Positions 1-51,334 are shown, counted from the stretch's first letter. The stretch is 64,000 nt of DNA from an uncultured virus (IMG/VR IMGVR_UViG_3300032250_000289) (IMGVR_UViG_3300032250_000289); one strand, 5' to 3'. The notes: generated by a model not told the origin, from the sequence alone. Numbers and translations: made by a program.

Positions 1-122
1 AAGAACAAAAACTCCATGAAGCAAATGCTGGATATGGAGAAGATTATACTGATGGTAGGATTGTTGGTGGTGCTGCGTTGGCAAGAAGAATACTTGAAAT
101 TTTGAAAGATATCAGTTTGTAA
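1..122 (+). CDS. partial hypothetical protein (3' end)
   Basis: Open frame from window edge (EQKLHEANAGYGEDYTDGRIVGG...ISL) ending TAA at 120-122. Confidence 0.5.
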   Translation, partial: EQKLHEANAGYGEDYTDGRIVGGAALARRILEILKDISL

Positions 123-125
123 ACC

Positions 126-431
126 ATGAAACTATTACTATGCAAAACTTGTGGTGATGTATTTAACTTACAACTTCATACTAAGAGTTGTGGTTGTGGA
201 TTAGTCAGTGGAAAATATATTGACAATCTATACGCTGAATACTCTGGTGGTATTCCGATTGGTTTTAATAATCCGTCTTTGGCTAAAGCATTAAAGAATC
301 AACCGGAGAGCGGAATGGGCGAAAGGTTTGAGGCATTTATTATACCAAAAGTATGCCCCACTATGGTAGAACTGAGATTAGAAATGATTAAAAAATTATC
401 GGAACTTGACCAAGAGTTAGGATTTCAATGA
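126..431 (+). CDS. hypothetical Cys-rich (zinc-ribbon-like) phage protein
   Basis: CKTCGD and SCGCG motifs, 101 aa. Confidence 0.6.
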   Translation: MKLLLCKTCGDVFNLQLHTKSCGCGLVSGKYIDNLYAEYSGGIPIGFNNPSLAKALKNQPESGMGERFEAFIIPKVCPTMVELRLEMIKKLSELDQELGFQ

Positions 432-547
432 GCGAAGAACTACCAGATAGTAAAATTCCTTGGTTTGACAATGAGTACGAGGGAGTGTATAGTGATGATC
501 CAGAACATGGATACCCTTACGATATGGGAACTAAAGTACAGGAATAA
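428..547 (+). CDS. small acidic hypothetical protein (39 aa)
   Basis: ATGA overlap with upstream stop; MSEELPDSKIPWFDNEYEG..., fills the gap. Confidence 0.45.
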   Translation: MSEELPDSKIPWFDNEYEGVYSDDPEHGYPYDMGTKVQE

Positions 548-550
548 ATT

Positions 551-826
551 ATGAATGAAAATGCTACACCATTAGATGCTATACTTGATTTCGCTTTGAA
601 ATCTGGTGCCAGTTTATTTATTGTCAACAACGCCAAAGATGAACTAAAGAAATTGCGTGATGAAGTCGATAATCTTCATAGGCAACTTGACAAGCCATCA
701 GCATGGGCTAGAATAAACAAACGGGGAGACTTGTATGACCCTCGACTCTGTTTAAACCCATACATCAACACTCAGGAAATAGTCCCACTTTACGCATACA
801 GAAAAGGATATAACAATGAAACTTGA
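551..826 (+). CDS. hypothetical protein
   Basis: ORF with AGGA SD-like site, packed between neighbours. Confidence 0.65.
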   Translation: MNENATPLDAILDFALKSGASLFIVNNAKDELKKLRDEVDNLHRQLDKPSAWARINKRGDLYDPRLCLNPYINTQEIVPLYAYRKGYNNET

Positions 827-1022
827 AGTTTATAATATTGGTAGCAAGGTTAAGTTGGCAGAAGATGTTTATGGAACTATAGTTGCCATTGCTATTCATG
901 CGGATAATAATATTACATATGAATGCGGATGGTGGAATGGTCGATCTTATGATACACGATGGTTTCATGCTAGCGAGATCGAAGTTACTTTAGCTGAAAA
1001 GACTAAAATAGGCTTTGTTTGA
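816..1022 (+). CDS. small beta-barrel-like hypothetical protein (YodC/DUF2158-like)
   Basis: IGSKVKL...YECGWWNG...WFHASEI pattern. Confidence 0.55.
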   Translation: MKLEVYNIGSKVKLAEDVYGTIVAIAIHADNNITYECGWWNGRSYDTRWFHASEIEVTLAEKTKIGFV

Positions 1023-1024
1023 TA

Positions 1025-1507
1025 TCAAAGTTTATGATCGTATTCCCAATGACAATTAGGACAGAGAGGTAAAATATTACTTTCATGATTTATTTCTGAC
1101 AGCTTTGCGTCTAATGAAAATTCAGAAATAGGTTTAATATGAGCAATCTCTACATGTTTATTATAACCACACTTAACGCATTTGTTCATTCCAAGATTTT
1201 TTGCAATTAACCTTGCTCTAGATCGAACCAATGCAAATGCTGAAGATTTATGATGACTGTAATAGATTGCATCTTTTAACATATAATCATGTGGTTTTAA
1301 ATTCTGTATACATTCTGGACATTTTTTCCTACTTGAAAGTATAAGATTACTACATAATTCACACTGTTTTGTTTTTACTTTTCTTGGATTGTTTTTCGTA
1401 TTTAAACTATTAGAACAACTCCTAGAACAATAATGATTAGACGATCTTTTAATTTGCGCATTGGCTTTTTCAAAATTTTTACCACAATTTTTACACTGGA
1501 CATTCAT
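1025..1507 (-). CDS. HNH homing-type endonuclease with N-terminal zinc fingers
   Basis: CVKCG..VEIAHIKP...NILPLCPNCHWEYDH; CKNCGK and YCSRSC fingers; AAGGA SD; only convincing minus-strand gene. Confidence 0.85.
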   Translation of the reverse strand: MNVQCKNCGKNFEKANAQIKRSSNHYCSRSCSNSLNTKNNPRKVKTKQCELCSNLILSSRKKCPECIQNLKPHDYMLKDAIYYSHHKSSAFALVRSRARLIAKNLGMNKCVKCGYNKHVEIAHIKPISEFSLDAKLSEINHESNILPLCPNCHWEYDHKL

Positions 1508-1542
1508 AATTAGTTCCTTATAATATTAAGACGATAAATTTT

Positions 1543-1630
1543 GCCTGACTGTAGCCAGCACAAGCCTTCTAAGCTTGTACCATAAATTTGCTGGATGGAG
1601 GATAGGGTTCGATTCCCCAGTCGGGTACTA
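1543..1630 (+). tRNA. atypical tRNA-like RNA, anticodon TCT (Arg), D-arm absent, 9/3 acceptor/T-stem
   Basis: GCCTGACTG(1543-51)/CAGTCGGGT(1618-26) 9-bp stem; ACAAGC-CTTCTAA-GCTTGT anticodon arm; GGG-TTCGATT-CCC T arm; long extra arm. Confidence 0.7.
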
Positions 1631-1642
1631 ATACTTATACAC
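1629..1642 (-). promoter_or_regulatory. putative phage late promoter (GTGTAT core) facing the minus-strand HNH gene
   Basis: Reverse complement reads GTGTATAAGTATTA, matching the motif at 4119, 17981 and 48002. Confidence 0.45.
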
Positions 1643-1666
1643 ACTTTCGAGTCCATAGTGCCAGTT

Positions 1667-1813
1667 ATGAAAATACAATTAGTTAGCGTTGTTCATCGTG
1701 CAATATGTCCAACATTTGTGTATGACGATACAACTAGAATAATACTTTCGATTATAGGCATTACGCTAGGACTTATAGTTTTATGGAGAATATCAAGATA
1801 TTTTAATAACTAA
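1667..1813 (+). CDS. small membrane protein
   Basis: ATG 1667; hydrophobic IILSIIGITLGLIVLW (the longer ORF from 1595 overlaps the tRNA-like gene). Confidence 0.5.
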   Translation: MKIQLVSVVHRAICPTFVYDDTTRIILSIIGITLGLIVLWRISRYFNN

Positions 1814-1821
1814 CTAAACAT

Positions 1822-1835
1822 GTGTATATAACTGT
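1822..1835 (+). promoter_or_regulatory. putative phage late promoter (GTGTAT core)
   Basis: GTGTATATAAC 45 nt upstream of the thioredoxin ATG. Confidence 0.4.
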
Positions 1836-1866
1836 GATATTTATATACGCACTGGAGGGTTCTAGC

Positions 1867-2211
1867 ATGAAACATAATATAGCAGTTGTCCTTTTAATAT
1901 CATCACTAATATCAATGTCAACAGTGTTGGCATTCGAAAACAATAAACCAGAAAAAACACTACTAATATTTTCGGCAGAATGGTGCGGACCATGCAAGTT
2001 GGTTCACAAAGATTTAATAGAAGATAAAAACCTAAGCGAAGTAATCAAAAATTATAACATCATCGACGTAGACTATGACGTAGATACAGATTTAGTATCC
2101 GGCTATAACGTTAAGATAGTTCCAACATTTATCATTTACCAAGACGGTAAAGAATTAAAAAGACAGTCAGGGTATTCAAGTTCAAAAATATTATTCAACT
2201 TTCTAAAATAA
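1867..2211 (+). CDS. thioredoxin-family protein with signal peptide
   Basis: FSAEWCGPCK active site, VPTF cis-Pro motif; MKHNIAVVLLISSLISMSTVLA signal; GGAGGG SD before ATG 1867. Confidence 0.85.
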   Translation: MKHNIAVVLLISSLISMSTVLAFENNKPEKTLLIFSAEWCGPCKLVHKDLIEDKNLSEVIKNYNIIDVDYDVDTDLVSGYNVKIVPTFIIYQDGKELKRQSGYSSSKILFNFLK

Positions 2212-2212
2212 C

Positions 2213-2566
2213 GGGGGCGAAAGGTATCGACAGGTAAAAAGAAATATAAACTGCATTAACTGGTTGATCGGTTGGCCAGTATAAAAACCGATTAAAAATG
2301 TTAATTGGCGAAGTAACTCTCGCTCTCGCTGCCTAATTAATTAGGTACTGAGTGGGGCGACATGAGCCTTATTACCAAATCATGTTGACTCCGATAATCG
2401 GATATGGAAGTCTCACCAGACATAAACGAGACTGATGATTGTACTCAATCTGATTCAGATAATTCTGATAGTTTTGTCAGTAGTACAATAACAACTGAAT
2501 AATAATGTAGACGTTTATATCGATATTTACTCTGGACGCGGCTTTCGAATGCCGCCGCCTCCACCA
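2213..2566 (+). ncRNA. ssrA: tmRNA, tag peptide (A)GEVTLALAA
   Basis: 5' GGGGGCG pairs with 3' CGCCTCC-A-CCA including G3:U70; GCGGC-TTTCGAAT-GCCGC T arm; tag ORF 2307-2336 ending ALAA-stop; 354 nt. Confidence 0.93.
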
Positions 2567-2675
2567 TATTACTGTAGCACAGAAAAATTGAATGTCGCAA
2601 TGAGGTTTTGACGATATAACAAGTGGTGGGAAACGGATAGCCCACTCAATTGAGATGATTAATTAAGGAGGATTT

Positions 2676-2978
2676 ATGAAGTATGTTGCTATGGTTGCGA
2701 TTGCTCTAATGTCTAGTACTTTGTTTGCACAAGAAGTTTATTATTCTAGAACTTCTTATACTAATAATAGTACAGCGCAGGGTGTAGCTGAAATTCAAGC
2801 AAGGAATTGTAAAATGTCCCACATGGGAGGTAATACAGGATATGAGGGTGTAGGTTACTCTAGTAGAAGTTCAGACGATGCTATTAAAAACTGTTGCTAT
2901 TGGGGGAAGAGAAAACCAGTTGAGATAGGGGTTGCAAAAGGTCGAAACGGATGGTATGCTTGTGTTCGTTACAGATAA
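2676..2978 (+). CDS. secreted CAP/SCP-like small protein
   Basis: Signal peptide ending TLFA; MSHMGG..EGVG..CCYWG..EIGVAKG..WYACVRY; AAGGAGG SD. Confidence 0.6.
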   Translation: MKYVAMVAIALMSSTLFAQEVYYSRTSYTNNSTAQGVAEIQARNCKMSHMGGNTGYEGVGYSSRSSDDAIKNCCYWGKRKPVEIGVAKGRNGWYACVRYR

Positions 2979-2982
2979 TGAA

Positions 2983-3195
2983 ATGACGATGCTAGGCTAC
3001 CATATAGTTGCTGGTATCTTATTTATTTTTTTCTTAGGAGTAAGCAATATCGTTTATGATATTATTTATCATGAAGATGAGGACGAAGATGAAGAAATCT
3101 ATATTGAAGAATCAAAACAACCGATGGAAAACCTAGCAGAATTTGATAATGATTATGAATATAACTTAACTTTTAATTTAGGAGATTTACTATGA
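2983..3195 (+). CDS. hypothetical membrane protein with acidic tail
   Basis: TM IVAGILFIFFLGV followed by EDEDEDEE. Confidence 0.5.
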   Translation: MTMLGYHIVAGILFIFFLGVSNIVYDIIYHEDEDEDEEIYIEESKQPMENLAEFDNDYEYNLTFNLGDLL

Positions 3196-3407
3196 AGATT
3201 TTTATTCTAACCGTTGCTGCCGCTCTTTGCTGTGGCTCTAGTTTTGCTGGTGAGTGCGTAAATGGCAAGTGCAATCTACGCAGTCGCACAGTAACAGTAG
3301 CCCGTGAAGTTATTTCGGTGCCAGTTGAAGTAACTCGCCGCACAGTAGAGGCTACACGTAATATTGGCCGACGAACAGTTGCAAGGGTTCGCAGCGTTGT
3401 TCGTTGA
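3192..3407 (+). CDS. small secreted Arg-rich protein
   Basis: Signal peptide ..SSFA, ECVNGKC motif, Arg/Val-rich tail; AGGAG SD. Confidence 0.65.
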   Translation: MKIFILTVAAALCCGSSFAGECVNGKCNLRSRTVTVAREVISVPVEVTRRTVEATRNIGRRTVARVRSVVR

Positions 3408-3417
3408 TCAATAATAG

Positions 3418-3474
3418 GAAAAGATAATCCCCGATGCCTCTTAACAATGCACACTTTCGGGGATCTTTTCTTTT
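3418..3474 (+). terminator. terminator-like hairpin with large boxA-like loop
   Basis: ATCCCCGA(3427-34)/TCGGGGAT(3457-64) stem followed by CTTTTCTTTT; loop TGCCTCTTAACAATGCACACTT. Confidence 0.55.
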
Positions 3475-3508
3475 ATGCTAACAGCTTACCAAACAAGTAT
3501 AATACTAG

Positions 3509-3595
3509 GGCTGAATGGCAGAGTGGTCTAATGCATCTCATTACTAATGAGAAGAAGTCTAAAAGCTTCCTTGGGTTCGAATCCTAATTCAGCCG
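3509..3595 (+). tRNA. tRNA-Ser, anticodon ACT
   Basis: GGCTGAA/TTCAGCC acceptor, G73; TCTCA-TTACTAA-TGAGA anticodon arm; long variable arm GAAG/CTTC; TTGGG-TTCGAAT-CCTAA T arm; CCA not encoded. Confidence 0.88.
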
Positions 3596-3616
3596 AATGA
3601 TTAATAAGGAATAAAT

Positions 3617-4051
3617 ATGTTTAGTTTTTTCAAAAACATCAGACAGATAAATAATAATCTTAGACAGATAAAACGTACATTACAACAGATGAATATGCGA
3701 ATGATTCATCCAAGTTTAAAAGTGTTTAACATTCGCTCATTAATGAAAGATGGTGTGATTATGCTAGTTTATAATGTAACCGCTGGAGTTGTGGTAGATA
3801 AGGACGTTACAGAGCGTAGACTAACTGTAACAGTAAATGATGCCCCAGTTTCTACCAAGTCTTACGCTGCCGACGCAGTAGTTTTCGATGAGGTTGGTGT
3901 TAATCAGGGTGATAAGGTTGTTTTAACCCTTGTTGACGTTGACGATGCTGGGAATGTAAGCGAACCCGCAGTGTGCGAGTTTGTTGGAAATGATACCATT
4001 CCACCTGTAAAACCGGGGGAATTTGGCGTTGCTCTAGTTCGTGAAGTGTGA
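3617..4051 (+). CDS. hypothetical protein with Ig/FN3-like beta module
   Basis: VDDAGNVSEP...DTIPPVKPG motif typical of bacterial Ig-like repeats. Confidence 0.55.
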   Translation: MFSFFKNIRQINNNLRQIKRTLQQMNMRMIHPSLKVFNIRSLMKDGVIMLVYNVTAGVVVDKDVTERRLTVTVNDAPVSTKSYAADAVVFDEVGVNQGDKVVLTLVDVDDAGNVSEPAVCEFVGNDTIPPVKPGEFGVALVREV

Positions 4052-4064
4052 AGTTAGAAGGTAA

Positions 4065-4099
4065 GCGCGGTGGTAGGCATATTGCTTACCACCGTGTTT
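4065..4099 (+). terminator. intrinsic terminator-like hairpin
   Basis: CGCGGTGGTAGGCA-TAT-TGCTTACCACCGTG followed by TTT. Confidence 0.65.
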
Positions 4100-4118
4100 A
4101 TTCTACATAGCCATATAT

Positions 4119-4132
4119 GTGTATATATTATA
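4119..4132 (+). promoter_or_regulatory. putative phage late promoter (GTGTAT core)
   Basis: GTGTATATATTATA between a terminator and the trypsin gene. Confidence 0.5.
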
Positions 4133-4163
4133 TGGATTTCTTAACTCATCTTAAGGGCTATGT

Positions 4164-4934
4164 ATGAAATATCTAACACTATTGCTTAGTTTATTATGTT
4201 GCGTTGCTAATGCTGGAACCATAGACAAAAATATTCCAGACCATAAATATGTTGAATATGGCGATAAGCACCCATCAGTTGTAAAAATAGAAGGCAATTA
4301 TGATAATGAAAAAAGTACCTATTTTTACGCATCAGCAGTAATTATTAAACCAAGATGGTTTTTAACTGCCGCCCACGTAATTAAGGGTAGCAAAAATTGC
4401 AGAATTGTTGTGGGTGAAAAAACAATATCAACAGATTTTGTAGCACACCACGCACTATATCAAGAAAATGTATTTGGTAAATACGATATAGGTATAGGAC
4501 ACTTAGAAGAGGATGCAGAAATATCTTTCTATCCAGAACCATATACAAAAAATGATGAGATTGGTAAAATTTGCAGCATGGCTGGATATGGTATTACTGG
4601 AACATATCAAAGCACAGAAAGAAAAATTGATAACTTAAAAAGGGCGGGATCAAATATTATTGGATCTATAGACAGAGATCTATTGATATGCTCTTTAAAA
4701 GATATGCCTAAAACAGGCTTAGAATTTTTAATATGTCATGGAGATAGTGGTGGTGGACTATTTATAGATAAAAAATTAGCAGGAATCAACTCCTGCGTGT
4801 TCTCAGAAGATAAAAAATTAGATTCAAATATAGATGATTGGTCTGGACATACAAGGATAAGTATATTTGTTGATTGGGTTAAAACAGCAATGGACGCTAT
4901 AGAAAAAAAAATAGCAGAAAAAGCCAAACCATGA
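4164..4934 (+). CDS. secreted trypsin-like (S1) serine protease
   Basis: LTAAHV, YDIGI, GDSGGGL catalytic triad motifs; signal peptide. Confidence 0.9.
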   Translation: MKYLTLLLSLLCCVANAGTIDKNIPDHKYVEYGDKHPSVVKIEGNYDNEKSTYFYASAVIIKPRWFLTAAHVIKGSKNCRIVVGEKTISTDFVAHHALYQENVFGKYDIGIGHLEEDAEISFYPEPYTKNDEIGKICSMAGYGITGTYQSTERKIDNLKRAGSNIIGSIDRDLLICSLKDMPKTGLEFLICHGDSGGGLFIDKKLAGINSCVFSEDKKLDSNIDDWSGHTRISIFVDWVKTAMDAIEKKIAEKAKP

Positions 4935-5257
4935 TTTTTCAAAGACTGCTAAAGTTTTTCTTCACCAGTGACGATTATGGTGCTAGGTCATCACGTTGGC
5001 CTAAGATAAGGCAAGAACATTTAAATAATTATCCACATTGTGCAGCGTGTGGTAGAAATAAAAAACTTGAAGTTCACCACATAAAACCATTTCATTCTAA
5101 TCCAGACTTAGAATTAGATCCAAATAATTTGATTACATTATGTGACGATCCCTGTCATTTTTTGTTTGGTCACTTAATGAACTATAAGAGTTGGAACCCA
5201 AGTGTCATAAATGATTGTGAGATATATTATGATAAAATCAAAAATAGGCCACAATAA
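4931..5257 (+). CDS. HNH endonuclease
   Basis: CAACG..LEVHHIKPF..NLITLC..CHFLFGH. Confidence 0.85.
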   Translation: MIFQRLLKFFFTSDDYGARSSRWPKIRQEHLNNYPHCAACGRNKKLEVHHIKPFHSNPDLELDPNNLITLCDDPCHFLFGHLMNYKSWNPSVINDCEIYYDKIKNRPQ

Positions 5258-5349
5258 ACTTACTTTCTTTATTATTATTCTTGATGCTTTTTGTATTGGC
5301 TATATTATAGGTTTTTGTTCTACTTATTTTGGAATTCTGTAATTGCCAG

Positions 5350-5378
5350 TTGACAAAATACTTTGATCAAGGTATCAT
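5350..5378 (+). promoter_or_regulatory. sigma70-type promoter
   Basis: TTGACA-17-TATCAT. Confidence 0.65.
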
Positions 5379-5412
5379 ATTATGAAAGGATCGAACACAC
5401 TATAGAGAGATT

Positions 5413-5679
5413 ATGATGGAACTTAGAGAAATAATACGAAATAAAGAGTTGTCTTATCTAGAAAATAAATCTAAGATAAAAGCTTTACTTGCAGATGTGG
5501 GTTATGCAAATATGCTTACCTACATGATCGAAGACTTAGATAGGTATGACATTTTGGGTAATGAAGATTTGTGGGTATTGAGAATGGCAGAAAGCATAGA
5601 AGATGCTTATAATGTACTTGTGGGCAAGTACAAGGACGAGGACGGTATTGATAGCAAGGTAACAATAAATGAGAATTGA
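5413..5679 (+). CDS. hypothetical protein
   Basis: ORF downstream of promoter, overlaps next gene. Confidence 0.6.
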   Translation: MMELREIIRNKELSYLENKSKIKALLADVGYANMLTYMIEDLDRYDILGNEDLWVLRMAESIEDAYNVLVGKYKDEDGIDSKVTINEN

Positions 5680-6025
5680 TCATGCACTAAATGTTAAAGT
5701 TGGGGATCATTTACTAAATACATTTTTAGATGATGTTGTTGTAACCAGCGTTTATAAAGAAGGTGGAGTTATTGTATTTGGTACAGTTGATACAAGGCTA
5801 AGACAAACTGCCTACTCATACGATTATGTATACTTAGTAGATATTGGTCCAAATGATATTTCTGACGAAGAATCTAGTTTTATAAATTGGGCCAAAGAAA
5901 ACAGAGAAAGCGTAGAAGAACAACTAGAGAATCTGGATTTAATAAAACAGTCTTATATGCAGGGATTTGGCATGGGCTTTTCTTACAAAAAAATACTGTC
6001 CAGTGAGGAGTTAATGCAGAAATGA
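5669..6025 (+). CDS. hypothetical protein
   Basis: Coupled ORF, ATGA overlap with thyX. Confidence 0.6.
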   Translation: MRIDHALNVKVGDHLLNTFLDDVVVTSVYKEGGVIVFGTVDTRLRQTAYSYDYVYLVDIGPNDISDEESSFINWAKENRESVEEQLENLDLIKQSYMQGFGMGFSYKKILSSEELMQK

Positions 6026-46389: not shown

Positions 46390-48009
46390 ATGTTTGGTTG
46401 GTTCCCTTTGAATAACTATACCCACTACAGTTTATTGCGTGGGTTTTCCAAGCCAGATGAATTGGCTGAAAAGTGTAAAGCTAATGGGTATATAGCTTGT
46501 GGTCTTTGCGATTATAAGACTATCTCTGGTGCTATATCCTTTTTTAAAGCCTGTAAGAAGGTTGGGATTAAGCCAATTATTGGTTGCTCCTTTGGTAGTT
46601 TTAAGCTATTTGCTAAAAACAAAGATGGGTGGCACGATCTAATCGAACTTGTATCCTCATTTAACGAGGATGCTGAATTGCCTAATGGTCTTCTGGATAA
46701 AATTATATCTAGAAACAACGTCATAAAAGTAATGAGCAATATTCATGATGAGCTTAGAGATAGCTATTATACAAACAAAGAAGACGCAAAATTGCATCGT
46801 ATTCTTTTATGTTCGGAAATGAAAACAACTCTACCAAAAATACACAAAGCGATTAAAAAGGATAAGAATGGTAGTGTAAATGTTCAGTCATCTTTTCCAC
46901 AAGAACATCATGACAAATTGAACTATTTTATGTTCGATCATTTTTATGTATTTGATAAAGAGGAGTCTAAAGATTTTGATACATCCTCATTAGAATCAAT
47001 ATATAATCAGTGCGAAGATTATGATATACTTAATAAACCAATTCTACCAAAGTTTAAGTGCCCAGATGGTAAGTCAGAAGAGGATTATTTAAAGGAGCTT
47101 TGTCGTATTGGGTGGAAGAAGTTGCTCATCGATGGAGATAAGGTTTCCAAACAGGAAGATAAGGACAAGTACCTAGAAAGATTTAAAGAAGAATTTGACG
47201 TAATTAAGAATGCTAACTTGTTCGGGTACTTCCTAATCGTCCAAGATATTATACAGTATGTTGAAAGTCAGGGATGGCTTGCTGGTCCCGGTAGAGGTTC
47301 AGCCGCCGGATGCTTGATATCATATTTGATTGGGATTACAAAGATTGACCCAATAGAGTTTGATTTGCTTTTTGCTAGATTTTATAACGCTGGTAGAAAT
47401 AGTGCTGACCACATTTCTTTACCAGATATTGACATGGACGTTCCCGGCAATAAGCGTGATGAGGTTATTGAGTATTTAAAAAACAGGTATGGACACGAAC
47501 ATGTTAGCCAAATGATTACGTTTGGTAGGTTGCGTGGTAGGAGTGCAATTAAAGAGGTTCTAAGAATTAACGAGGCGTGTTCTTTTGCTGAGATGAATGC
47601 TATCACTAAGAGTATCCCCAACGAGGCTGAAATTTCTGACCAGTTAGCAGATATGGATGATGAAGAAAGATCAATTATTAAGTGGGCATTAATCAACAAT
47701 GCTAATGAACTAAGAGACTTCTGCTATATTGGAGAAACTGGAAAGCTTGAAGGAACATATGCCGAATACTTTGAGCAAGCTATTAACATTGAGGGTACAT
47801 TTAAAACTCAGGGTAAACACGCTGCTGGTGTTGTCATATCAGCAGCACCGCTAAAAATGGTTTGTCCAATGGTTAAGCAGAGGGATTCATCAGAAAAAAT
47901 TGCTGGATTAGAAATGTCAGACTTAGAAGCATTAGGACATGTGAAATTTGATATTTTAGGAATTACGCTCTTGGATAAATTGATGTATATCCAGAAAATG
48001 TGTGTATAG
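46390..48009 (+). CDS. dnaE: DNA polymerase III alpha, N-terminal half (PHP + palm)
   Basis: YSLL..KPIIG, GPGRGSAAG, LPDIDMD, HAAGVVI, VKFDILG; stops soon after KFDILG. Confidence 0.92.
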   Translation: MFGWFPLNNYTHYSLLRGFSKPDELAEKCKANGYIACGLCDYKTISGAISFFKACKKVGIKPIIGCSFGSFKLFAKNKDGWHDLIELVSSFNEDAELPNGLLDKIISRNNVIKVMSNIHDELRDSYYTNKEDAKLHRILLCSEMKTTLPKIHKAIKKDKNGSVNVQSSFPQEHHDKLNYFMFDHFYVFDKEESKDFDTSSLESIYNQCEDYDILNKPILPKFKCPDGKSEEDYLKELCRIGWKKLLIDGDKVSKQEDKDKYLERFKEEFDVIKNANLFGYFLIVQDIIQYVESQGWLAGPGRGSAAGCLISYLIGITKIDPIEFDLLFARFYNAGRNSADHISLPDIDMDVPGNKRDEVIEYLKNRYGHEHVSQMITFGRLRGRSAIKEVLRINEACSFAEMNAITKSIPNEAEISDQLADMDDEERSIIKWALINNANELRDFCYIGETGKLEGTYAEYFEQAINIEGTFKTQGKHAAGVVISAAPLKMVCPMVKQRDSSEKIAGLEMSDLEALGHVKFDILGITLLDKLMYIQKMCV

Positions 48010-49409: not shown

Positions 49410-49779
49410 AAAATGCAGTAAGTGTAAACAAGAATTACCTCTTACTGATTTTAGAAGAAGGGGTGGAGAAAAGTATCTAAGATCAGAATGTAAAGACTGT
49501 AATAATCAACTAAAAAGAGATAGATCAGAATTGAAAAAGCAGCACGGCAAACCACCAGAAAATTATACTTGTCCAATATGTGAGAGAAATGAAGTTGAGT
49601 GTGCCGGTGAAGGAAATAAAATCGCTTCGTCTTGGGTATTAGACCATTGCCATATCACAAAAAAATTCAGAGGGTGGCTATGTCACAAATGTAATAGGGG
49701 CTTGGGAGCTTTTGGGGATAATAAGAATAAAATTGTAAATGCATTGAACTATTTATTGTCGAGAGAAAATAATGATTGA
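49399..49779 (+). CDS. endonuclease VII-family nuclease
   Basis: CPIC..LDHCH..FRGWLCHKCNRGLG. Confidence 0.85.
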   Translation: MLSKKCSKCKQELPLTDFRRRGGEKYLRSECKDCNNQLKRDRSELKKQHGKPPENYTCPICERNEVECAGEGNKIASSWVLDHCHITKKFRGWLCHKCNRGLGAFGDNKNKIVNALNYLLSRENND

Positions 49780-51334
49780 TTATAATGATAAAAAAACATG
49801 GCAGCTATTCGCAGAAGGAAAGACCAAAGGTATCTTTCAATTAGAAAGTAATCTTGGTAAAGCTTGGGCTAAGAAGGTTGCTCCAACTAATATTGAAGAA
49901 TTATCCGCTCTTATCGCCATTATTAGGCCGGGAACACTAAAAGCTTTCGTTGATGGAAAGTCTATGACCCAACACTATGTGGATAGAAAACATGGTAGAG
50001 AAGAAGTCGTATATCTGCATGAGTCTATAGAAGAAATCTTAAAGCCAACTTATGGGGTATTGGTTTATCAAGAGCAGTCTATGCGTATAGCTCAAAAGGT
50101 AGCTGGGTTCAATCTACAAGAGGCTGACGTTCTACGTAAGGCCATTGGTAAGAAAAATGCTGCCCTCATGAATGAAGTTAAGAAGTCCTTTATTGAGGGT
50201 TCCCAAAAAGTAAAACTTGTCTCACAGGAAGAAGCTGAACAGATATTCGGATGGATTGAGAAGTCATCTAGGTATGCCTTTAATAAGTCTCACAGCGTGT
50301 CATACGCCGTGTGTTCTTATTGGAGTGCATACTTTAAGGCCCACCATACAAAAGAATTCTTTGAGGCTTATCTATATTATGCCAATGAGAAGCAAGACCC
50401 ACATCAGGAAATCTATGAGCTAATATCAGAAGCTAAACTATTTGACATTCAAGCTAGAACGCCAAGCATTTCACACTATGATGTAAAATTTAATTTTCAC
50501 AATGGCAAGATATACTTTGGTATCAAAGATATTAAGTCTTTAACCGGTAAAACTGGTGATAAGGTTGTGGATGCCATCAAAGAGGTAGAATCTGAACTTG
50601 GCAAGAAGATGACCAAATTTACTTGGTTAGAGATTCTTTTGTTCTTTGGGTCAAAGGTTAGCTCAACAGCTTTTAAAGCCCTAGCATCTGTGGGATTTTT
50701 TAGGGGATTTTTAGAAACTGTACAGAGAAATAAGGCTTTATACGACTATGATATATTTAGAACTTTGACGGCGGCTGAACAGAACTGGATTAAAGAGCGT
50801 TATAAAGATAAGCAGTGGAAGACTTTCGTTGACTGTCTTAGGGACTTGGCACCAACCAAAAAAGAGGGCGGTGGTACTAGCAAGATTGATCGAAAGCAAG
50901 CTATTGAAAATGAGATTCAACTATTAGTTAATCCACCGTATGATCTTACAGATGAAGCAAACTGGTTAATTGATCAAGAAACCAAATTCTTGGGGTGTCC
51001 AGTAACATTGACTAAAATAGAAACATCTGATAATTCTGCTGCAAATACTACATGCAAAGATATTATAAATGGTAAGAAGGGCAAAGACTTGTGCATCGTC
51101 GCCAACATACAAAGACTAGCTGATTACAAAATTAATAAGGGTGAGTCTAAGGGGCAAATGATGTCCTTTCTTACAATTGAAGATGACTCATGTGTTTTAG
51201 ATAGTGTGGTTGTATTTCCAAAAGTTAGAGAGAAATACAAGTATATATTATATGAGGGTAATAATTTAATTTTCTGCGGTTCAGTTGCCGAACATGATTC
51301 ATCATTGATCGTCAATCAAATCCACGAAATTTAG
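49772..51334 (+). CDS. dnaE: DNA polymerase III alpha, C-terminal half (fingers/HhH/OB)
   Basis: GKTKGIFQLES, AIIRPG, TYGVLVYQEQ, ADVLRKAIGKK, YAFNKSHS, MSFLTIED. Confidence 0.92.
   Translation: MIDYNDKKTWQLFAEGKTKGIFQLESNLGKAWAKKVAPTNIEELSALIAIIRPGTLKAFVDGKSMTQHYVDRKHGREEVVYLHESIEEILKPTYGVLVYQEQSMRIAQKVAGFNLQEADVLRKAIGKKNAALMNEVKKSFIEGSQKVKLVSQEEAEQIFGWIEKSSRYAFNKSHSVSYAVCSYWSAYFKAHHTKEFFEAYLYYANEKQDPHQEIYELISEAKLFDIQARTPSISHYDVKFNFHNGKIYFGIKDIKSLTGKTGDKVVDAIKEVESELGKKMTKFTWLEILLFFGSKVSSTAFKALASVGFFRGFLETVQRNKALYDYDIFRTLTAAEQNWIKERYKDKQWKTFVDCLRDLAPTKKEGGGTSKIDRKQAIENEIQLLVNPPYDLTDEANWLIDQETKFLGCPVTLTKIETSDNSAANTTCKDIINGKKGKDLCIVANIQRLADYKINKGESKGQMMSFLTIEDDSCVLDSVVVFPKVREKYKYILYEGNNLIFCGSVAEHDSSLIVNQIHEI

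Follow-up and report, generated by a model that had tools for sequence, protein, structure and literature searches.

A phage tRNA-Arg(UCU)-like gene with a covarying long-range equivalent of the D-stem: a candidate AGA decoder linked to an HNH endonuclease gene

Can an RNA that presents the anticodon arm and T loop of tRNA-Arg(UCU), and that has no D hairpin, serve as a working tRNA? The question is raised by an 85-nt element in a 64,000-nt stretch of DNA from an uncultured virus (IMGVR_UViG_3300032250_000289), which was analysed at its full length and is referred to here as the window. The window, with a G+C content of 36% and nearly all of its ORFs on one strand, comes from a large phage genome of the lytic type; genes for rIIA/rIIB, ribonucleotide reductase, thymidylate synthase and a split DNA polymerase are among its contents. 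Judging from sequence comparison, we consider it probable that the element acts as a tRNA-Arg(UCU) that decodes AGA, belongs to a class outside the cloverleaf fold and has been spread by a homing cassette. The parts of the element are as follows.

1543–1627, plus strand: rewired tRNA-Arg(UCU)-like gene, 85 nt, without an encoded CCA
1543–1551 and 1618–1626, plus strand: acceptor stem, 9 bp (minimum-energy fold)
1552–1554, plus strand: linker between the acceptor stem and the long-range helix
1555–1559 (CCAGC) and 1590–1594 (GCTGG), plus strand: long-range "D-stem" helix, 5 bp (minimum-energy fold)
1560–1565 and 1573–1578, plus strand: anticodon stem, 6 bp (minimum-energy fold)
1566–1572, plus strand: anticodon loop CTTCTAA, with the anticodon TCT at 1568–1570
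1579–1589, plus strand: bulge of 11 nt (minimum-energy fold)
1595–1604, plus strand: D-loop-like linker of 10 nt, ATGGAGGATA, which includes GGA
1605–1607 and 1615–1617, plus strand: T stem, 3 bp (minimum-energy fold)
1608–1614, plus strand: T loop TTCGATT
1627, plus strand: discriminator A

The original prediction, made from the sequence of the window, had described a D-arm-less RNA with about 8 nt in place of the D arm. There are indeed 8 nt (1552–1559) between the acceptor and anticodon arms, and a D hairpin is absent; however, five of these nucleotides pair with 1590–1594, and the equivalent of a D-stem is formed by this long-range pairing around the anticodon arm. In the minimum-energy fold, the CCAGC/GCTGG helix encloses the anticodon arm together with the 11-nt bulge. 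The prediction had extended this helix to CCAGCA/TGCTGG. Five of its pairs hold, but the sixth is lost, since A1560 belongs to the anticodon stem. Its assignment of the sequence TAGC to the canonical U8-A9-G10-C11 did not survive the comparison with homologues, in which the linker varies across the class (GTC, TTC, GCC and others). The folding energy of the element is not significant (z = −1.64), as 13 of 200 shuffled sequences were equally or more stable.

Several other ways of folding or deriving the element were considered and rejected. In a 7/5 reading of the window copy, the T stem would carry an A·C mismatch, and acceptor pairs 8 and 9 covary. Inspection by eye disposed of a circular permutation, because no cyclic shift of the cloverleaf yields the order acceptor, anticodon arm, D-like element, T arm, and of an intron, because a group I intron could not fit in so short an insert. 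The tRNA domain of a tmRNA was set aside because Rfam locates the tmRNA elsewhere, at 2213–2566. A CC:GG pseudoknot was rejected as the CC of the bulge is not conserved in the wider family. A V-arm hairpin of the kind drawn by ARAGORN (CCAT/ATGG) is paired in 75.9% of cells, no better than the 75.6% seen in shuffles, and 253 of 500 shuffled sets equal or exceed the observed value.

The element has numerous homologues. An exact 23-mer search retrieved a single viral contig, L001, in which 82 of the 85 bases of the element are identical to those of the window (96%), while the flanks are unalignable. The three differences convert a U·G pair to C-G, replace a C-G pair with U-A in a compensatory manner, and alter one base of the bulge. 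Two other viral patterns returned this contig alone, and the pattern TAGCCAGC-N6-CTTCTAA gave 11 viral loci, 10 of which were chance matches in coding DNA. A gapped pattern composed of the anticodon loop, the D-loop-like motif and the T loop identified 14 metagenome loci, and a covariance model was matched by all 14 and by one viral contig with scores of 78–117 bits. The search yielded 16 further copies on viral and metagenome contigs, 30 more distant members, and two unannotated members in cultured phages. A looser pattern (CTTCTAA, 28–40 nt, GGTTCGANTCC) occurs in at least 119 viral stretches. Among the matches listed, 30 of 80 viral loci fit the model at E ≤ 0.001, and 7 of 80 loci from bacterial or archaeal genomes also fit it; neither figure is a prevalence.

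The homologues support the proposed helices. Even the window and its close relative L036 differ by a compensatory change at one anticodon-stem pair, G-C versus A-T. In the 17 copies, 13 of which are distinct, 99.7% of cells are paired and both sides change in 17 of 23 pairs; none of 500 shuffles reached the observed covariation, and slid controls paired in 23–42%. Among the 27 best-aligned diverse members, 98.2% of cells are paired, versus 70.3% in shuffles. Covariation was found at all nine pairs of the acceptor stem (97.9–100% of cells paired), at five of the six anticodon-stem pairs and, in the 27 members, at three of the five pairs of the long-range helix, where the counts refer to sequences and not to independent events and two of the three alignments were fitted to the proposed model. 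The inner three long-range pairs appear as AU/CG/GU/UA, GC/AU/CG/UA and CG/AU/UA, and the two outer C-G pairs never lose pairing. Independently of the fitted model, MAFFT followed by RNAalifold predicted the long-range helix, the anticodon stem and the T stem de novo from 22 of the 27 members, a set that omits L042, L033, L034, L053 and L085 as near-duplicates or poorly aligned sequences. The acceptor stem was not recovered from these 22 sequences because the sequence ends misalign.

Thus, the three stems of the original prediction, namely the 9-bp acceptor stem, the 6-bp anticodon stem with the loop CTTCTAA and the 3-bp T stem around TTCGATT, are found in the minimum-energy fold and conserved in the homologues, and every helix covaries (98–99.7% of cells paired). 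Its central proposal, an internally rearranged tRNA with the GG/A element 3′ of the anticodon arm, is supported by the covariation of the long-range helix and by the R-W-G-G-A linker described below. The sequence is kept while the flanks are unalignable, and all four helices covary, which indicates that the structure is under purifying selection.

The loops and the branch also show a consistent pattern. The T loop TTCGATT is invariant in all 27 members. The anticodon loop is 7 nt long and reads CTT(C/A)TAA in 27 of 27, with CTTCTAA invariant in the UCU members, including U33 and a purine at position 37. The acceptor/T branch spans 12–13 bp, divided 9/3 or, in some members, 9/4, and the T stem accordingly has three pairs (four in some), not five. 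The linker that follows the long-range helix starts with R-W-G-G-A in 25 of the 26 UCU members as aligned, and the 26th, L085, fits this consensus if the helix is shifted. The D loops of canonical tRNA-Arg genes in related phages read ATGGATA; therefore, we read the linker as a D-loop substitute. Residue A20 is an identity element of bacterial tRNA-Arg for ArgRS, and the GGA of the linker would match it. The sole UAU member of the alignment has an ATGGT linker, with GGU in place of GGA, a contrast drawn from one UAU member (n = 1).

This UAU member is a second, divergent rewired copy on contig L038, at 4037–4124 (plus strand) and about 1 kb from the Arg copy of that contig, with the anticodon TAT (Ile AUA type), a 9/4 branch, the helix CCAAT/ATTGG and a GGT linker. 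A weaker match with a TAT anticodon is located at L073 976–1055 (27 bits).

We propose the following architecture for the RNA. The coaxial acceptor/T stack would stay at 12 bp, divided 9/3; the anticodon arm and T loop would be canonical, and the D hairpin absent. The strand that follows the acceptor stem would pair with a strand 3′ of the anticodon arm, and the resulting 5-bp helix would stack on the anticodon stem, giving 5 + 6 bp, approximately the length of a D-stem plus an anticodon stem. The R-W-G-G-A strand leaving the helix may then take the role of G18-G19-A20 at the elbow, after which the chain continues into the short T stem. The helix would amount to a strand-swapped D-stem: the entering strand, which follows on from the acceptor stem and leads into the 5′ side of the anticodon stem, would thus occupy the position of canonical 22–25, with the returning strand in the place of 10–13. 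The shift of the 9/3 junction by two pairs towards the elbow and the trailing GGA loop would both fit such a swap.

Mitochondrial tRNAs that lack the D arm, such as the Ascaris mt-tRNA-Ser(UCU), contain an unpaired replacement loop and a reduced T arm and are flexible (PMC7609411). The element resembles these metazoan and nematode tRNAs in the missing D hairpin and the short connector between acceptor and anticodon arms. In contrast, its connector pairs downstream in a covarying helix, its T loop is fully canonical, it contains an extra 21–26 nt that carry the D-loop-like motif, and it resides in a phage rather than an organelle. The available portion of the same review describes no functional tRNA from the cytoplasm or from bacteria that lacks a D hairpin; it is therefore an assumption that RNase P, ArgRS, EF-Tu and the ribosome would accept the element.

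The genomic position of the element reveals which gene it has replaced. Through rIIA (60–97% identity), we found 17 relative loci, of which four (L014, L015, L016 and L019) contain a canonical tRNA-Arg(TCT) and none contains the rewired copy. The canonical gene sits at the window's own slot in L014, L015 and L016, and in L019 it lies within the slot that the element occupies in L001. No canonical tRNA-Arg(TCT) was found in the 17 loci that hold rewired copies, although the window represents 64 kb of a possibly larger genome and a canonical tRNA-Arg(UCU) could lie elsewhere. Window 559–1022 matches L014 1–464, and window 1665–1741 matches L014 541–617, so that window 1023–1664 stands exactly where L014 has its 74-nt tRNA-Arg gene. 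This segment consists of an HNH gene, a promoter-like site, the element and a trailer of 37 nt. L036 and L045 carry the cassette as the window does, and L014, L015 and L016 lack it at that slot. Apart from the element, the segment comprises the following features.

1025–1507, minus strand: HNH endonuclease gene, 160 aa (Pfam HNH_2, 37.1 bits with a cut-off of 21; PHROGs HNH families)
1497–1524, plus strand: sigma-70-like promoter, TGGACA-16 nt-TATAAT, 11 of 12 consensus matches
1628–1664, plus strand: decaying 3′ relic from the displaced tRNA-Arg(UCU) gene, 37 nt, with the T-loop remnant TTTCGAGTCC

The canonical tRNA-Arg(UCU) genes of L014, L015 and L016 share with the element the CTTCTAA loop, the T loop, the genomic slot and the lack of an encoded CCA. 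They differ from it in their 7/5 branch, D hairpin and variable loop of 4–5 nt, and they are called by both ARAGORN and Rfam. The 37-nt trailer starts at the anticodon base C35 (CTAA...) and aligns with these canonical genes with TTCGA in register, which identifies it as a relic of the displaced gene, with the junction in the anticodon loop. Ten HNH-linked copies, that of the window included, have such a trailer; all ten start at C35, and two of them align with one or two single-base gaps. The relic in L001 is fresher, with approximately 90% identity to the 3′ half of the L016 tRNA. No relic of the 5′ half of the old tRNA was detected beyond the HNH gene in the nine cassettes examined. The original prediction had also raised the case of an ordinary tRNA-Arg that decayed at this site; the decayed part is the relic at 1628–1664, not the element.

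A different cassette has split the resident tRNA-Arg(UCU) in its anticodon arm/loop in L019 (1388–1999), where the 3′ half starts at the loop and both halves of the old gene remain. That cassette holds a canonical tRNA-Arg(TCT) (1459–1533) and a 125-aa HNH-like ORF (1595–1972), in which Pfam detected no domain.

In our model, the rewired tRNA gene would travel with the divergent HNH gene as a mobile cassette. The cassette would have inserted at the anticodon loop of a resident tRNA-Arg(UCU), destroying that gene, and the cassette-borne tRNA would then restore the lost function. We infer both the specificity of the endonuclease and the immunity of the cassette: the rewired gene plausibly escapes the enzyme because both DNA flanks of the anticodon arm differ from those of the canonical gene.

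Standard tools overlook the element. Applied to the whole 64-kb window, ARAGORN made one call, a tRNA-Ser, and missed the element as had been anticipated. Rfam recovered this tRNA-Ser and a tmRNA, and its tRNA model RF00005 gave no match at 1543–1627 even at E ≤ 10. ARAGORN calls two of the 17 close copies, both as forced folds that use upstream bases, and these are its only two Arg calls in the 17 copy-bearing loci. Window 1–6000 has no near relative by megablast or blastn (E ≤ 1e-5) among 50,697 deposited phage records, and the leads in the phages ME3 and NiceHouse came from a blast search that used just the 85-nt element as query (E ≤ 10).

Both cultured phages carry unannotated rewired genes. 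In Rhodococcus phage NiceHouse (MT521992.1), a rewired tRNA-Arg(TCT) with a 7/5 branch is located at L048 1997–2079 (34 bits) and reaches 40.8 bits with the Rfam tRNA model; its linker is longer, at 14 nt, as would be expected if it has to reach a 5-bp T stem. This phage has 39 Rfam tRNA hits and about 35 tRNA genes, and the rewired gene provides the only TCT anticodon among the loci scanned by ARAGORN (a sub-threshold hit at 100951–101025 was left out). In Acinetobacter phage vB_AbaM_ME3 (NC_041884.1), a rewired tRNA-Arg(TCT) with a 9/4 branch (L046 2490–2573, 55 bits) lies beside a tRNA-Met, and none of the four other Rfam tRNA hits was called as tRNA-Arg (one hit was uncalled). Since ARAGORN, Rfam and two GenBank records all miss the gene, phage tRNA repertoires and analyses of codon supply are biased. 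ARAGORN also calls a CTA-anticodon tRNA and a 99-nt "tRNA-Leu(tag)" in ME3. Rewired members were found as well on contigs binned as bacterial MAGs, at L255 68–145 (57 bits), L201 290–370 (44 bits) and L212 290–374 (41 bits).

AGA accounts for 359 of the 700 Arg codons (51%) in 79 ORFs of the window. Together with this demand, the one-for-one replacement of the canonical gene, the rewired gene of NiceHouse as the one TCT-anticodon gene among its scanned loci, the promoter and the GGA linker make a decoder of AGA the most likely function of the gene. The RNA would be transcribed, receive its CCA by addition, be charged by ArgRS, and decode AGA.

The main rival to a decoder is a tRNA-shaped decoy or anti-defence RNA, which would mimic the anticodon arm and elbow of tRNA-Arg(UCU) against a host tRNA nuclease and be unused in translation. 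The invariant anticodon loop on an unorthodox body would suit this role, and phage tRNAs are reported to counter tRNA-cleaving defences (PMC12846349). The tmRNA and the odd tRNA-Ser(ACU) of the window suggest, in addition, a heavy investment in translation rescue. However, a decoy would have no reason to maintain a covarying acceptor stem of 9 bp and an acceptor/T branch of 12 bp, to take the place of a canonical gene one for one, or to supply the sole UCU anticodon among about 35 phage tRNAs. We consider a decoy without a role in translation unlikely. The two functions are compatible, and a nuclease-resistant decoder fits both.

Comparison with allo-tRNAs suggests a further rival, in which the RNA receives an amino acid other than arginine, as allo-tRNAs receive serine, or acts as a recoding or missense tRNA at AGA. 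Allo-tRNAs possess 9/3 or 8/4 acceptor branches and were mined from metagenomes, some of them in phages (Mukai et al. 2017, PMC5389517). The element resembles them in its 12-bp acceptor/T branch split 9/3, its 6-bp anticodon stem and its discovery in metagenomes. Apart from the element, a 9/3 branch is a known trait of allo-tRNAs, and many of these have been proposed to act as missense or nonsense suppressors (PMC5389517). In contrast, as described in the accessible part of that source, allo-tRNAs keep a D hairpin with a long stem and a tetraloop, as well as a long V-arm hairpin. The element has neither, and its D-stem equivalent is the long-range helix around the anticodon arm. Moreover, an ordinary tRNA-Arg(UCU) is what the element replaces, missense reading would be costly because no other Arg codon is as frequent in the window as AGA, and the GGA linker may fit Arg identity. 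Mischarging or recoding is therefore, in our judgement, quite improbable.

The HNH gene bears on both the proposed cassette and a third rival. Its product is a probable free-standing homing endonuclease, as judged from its domain matches. In 10 of the 17 close copies, an HNH orthologue on the opposite strand begins 22–35 nt upstream of the element; an eleventh, L041, contains a collapsed HNH remnant (by eye), and the other six contain neither the gene nor a remnant. The promoter-like site, a consensus match alone, is the best match within 1300–2300 and lies 18 nt upstream of the tRNA 5′ end, and a match of at least 10/12 ends 8–18 nt upstream of the element in 10 of the 11 HNH-linked copies, four of which have a perfect TTGACA-N16/17-TATAAT. 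The HNH proteins of the window and L035 share 67% amino-acid identity, and three of the 85 tRNA positions differ between the two, which indicates that the RNA gene is under much tighter constraint. Upstream of the L041 copy (370–454, minus strand), the first HNH codons run into the C-terminal HWEFDH motif and the tRNA is intact; the HNH gene there appears to have collapsed through an internal deletion.

This tight, conserved and divergent linkage with a shared promoter region in 10–11 of the 17 close copies would also be consistent with a cis-acting or regulatory part of the HNH cassette that has no tRNA role, such as a homing-site mimic, an immunity element, an RNA that controls the HNH gene or a processing signal. 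However, the element occurs without an HNH gene in L001, L044, L034, L038 (two copies), L043, ME3 and NiceHouse. Five of the 30 distant members have an HNH, HNH_2 or HNH_3 ORF within 700 nt in several arrangements, and the other 25 have no Pfam-detectable HNH within that distance; the distant members thus stand beside three HNH Pfam families, in varied orientations, or beside none. Therefore, the tRNA class is independent of the endonuclease, although tRNA-Arg(UCU) loci still repeatedly attract such elements. Furthermore, the covariation is at the RNA level and tRNA-like. A purely cis-acting part of the cassette is very improbable.

A related arrangement is found in phage T4, where the GIY-YIG homing endonuclease SegB is encoded between intact tRNA genes (PMC2330249). 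The window shares with that system an endonuclease among tRNA genes, a presence/absence polymorphism and the co-inheritance of flanking tRNA DNA. It differs in that the enzyme is predicted to be of the HNH type and would bring a rewired replacement for the tRNA gene that is destroyed. In full-text searches of the openly accessible literature, we found neither a phage tRNA with a long-range D-stem nor an HNH cassette carrying one.

The weakest rival, a functionless decayed or rearranged tRNA-Arg pseudogene, agrees with the failure of standard tRNA finders and with the adjoining true tRNA relic, but is scarcely credible given the 96% identity between phages with unalignable flanks, a compensatory change even among relatives as close as the window and L036, the spread over dozens of contigs that are unrelated, in which 98% of the cells are paired, and the neighbouring genuine relic, which shows what decay looks like.

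Beyond the single locus, we regard as evenly balanced the broader proposition that these sequences represent a widespread, fully translation-active class of phage tRNAs (Arg-UCU and at least one of the Ile-UAU type) with a strand-swapped D-stem and D-loop elements 3′ of the anticodon arm. The design may persist because altered DNA on both sides of the anticodon arm would protect the gene from homing endonucleases aimed at tRNA-Arg genes and, perhaps, because the RNA resists tRNA-cleaving defences of the host. If the RNA is charged and decodes AGA, the cloverleaf is not the sole topology accepted by bacterial RNase P, ArgRS, EF-Tu and the ribosome. They would then be the first elongator tRNAs outside organelles to depart from the cloverleaf topology, with a bearing on tRNA evolution, identity rules and the engineering of orthogonal tRNAs. 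The cassette would represent a selfish endonuclease that destroys an auxiliary gene and carries a structurally disguised replacement for it, and it offers a testable model of how homing elements could drive innovation in RNA genes.

The window contains further features of note.

2213–2566, plus strand: tmRNA (Rfam RF00023, 95.2 bits), uncalled by ARAGORN
3428–3464, plus strand: hairpin matching the Rfam abiF motif with 33.3 bits, below the gathering threshold of 37, 45 nt upstream of the tRNA-Ser
3509–3595, plus strand: type II tRNA-Ser with the anticodon ACT (A34)
46390–48009 and 49772–51334, plus strand: DNA polymerase as two ORFs

The tmRNAs of relatives encode the tag peptide GVTQLALAA. 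The A34 anticodon of the tRNA-Ser is unusual for bacteria-type decoding, and the same tRNA-Ser(ACT) was called in L001, L019, L020, L021, L025, L026, L027, L039 and L044. The two DNA polymerase ORFs lie approximately 1.7 kb apart with three ORFs between them, and this split may reflect another mobile insertion.
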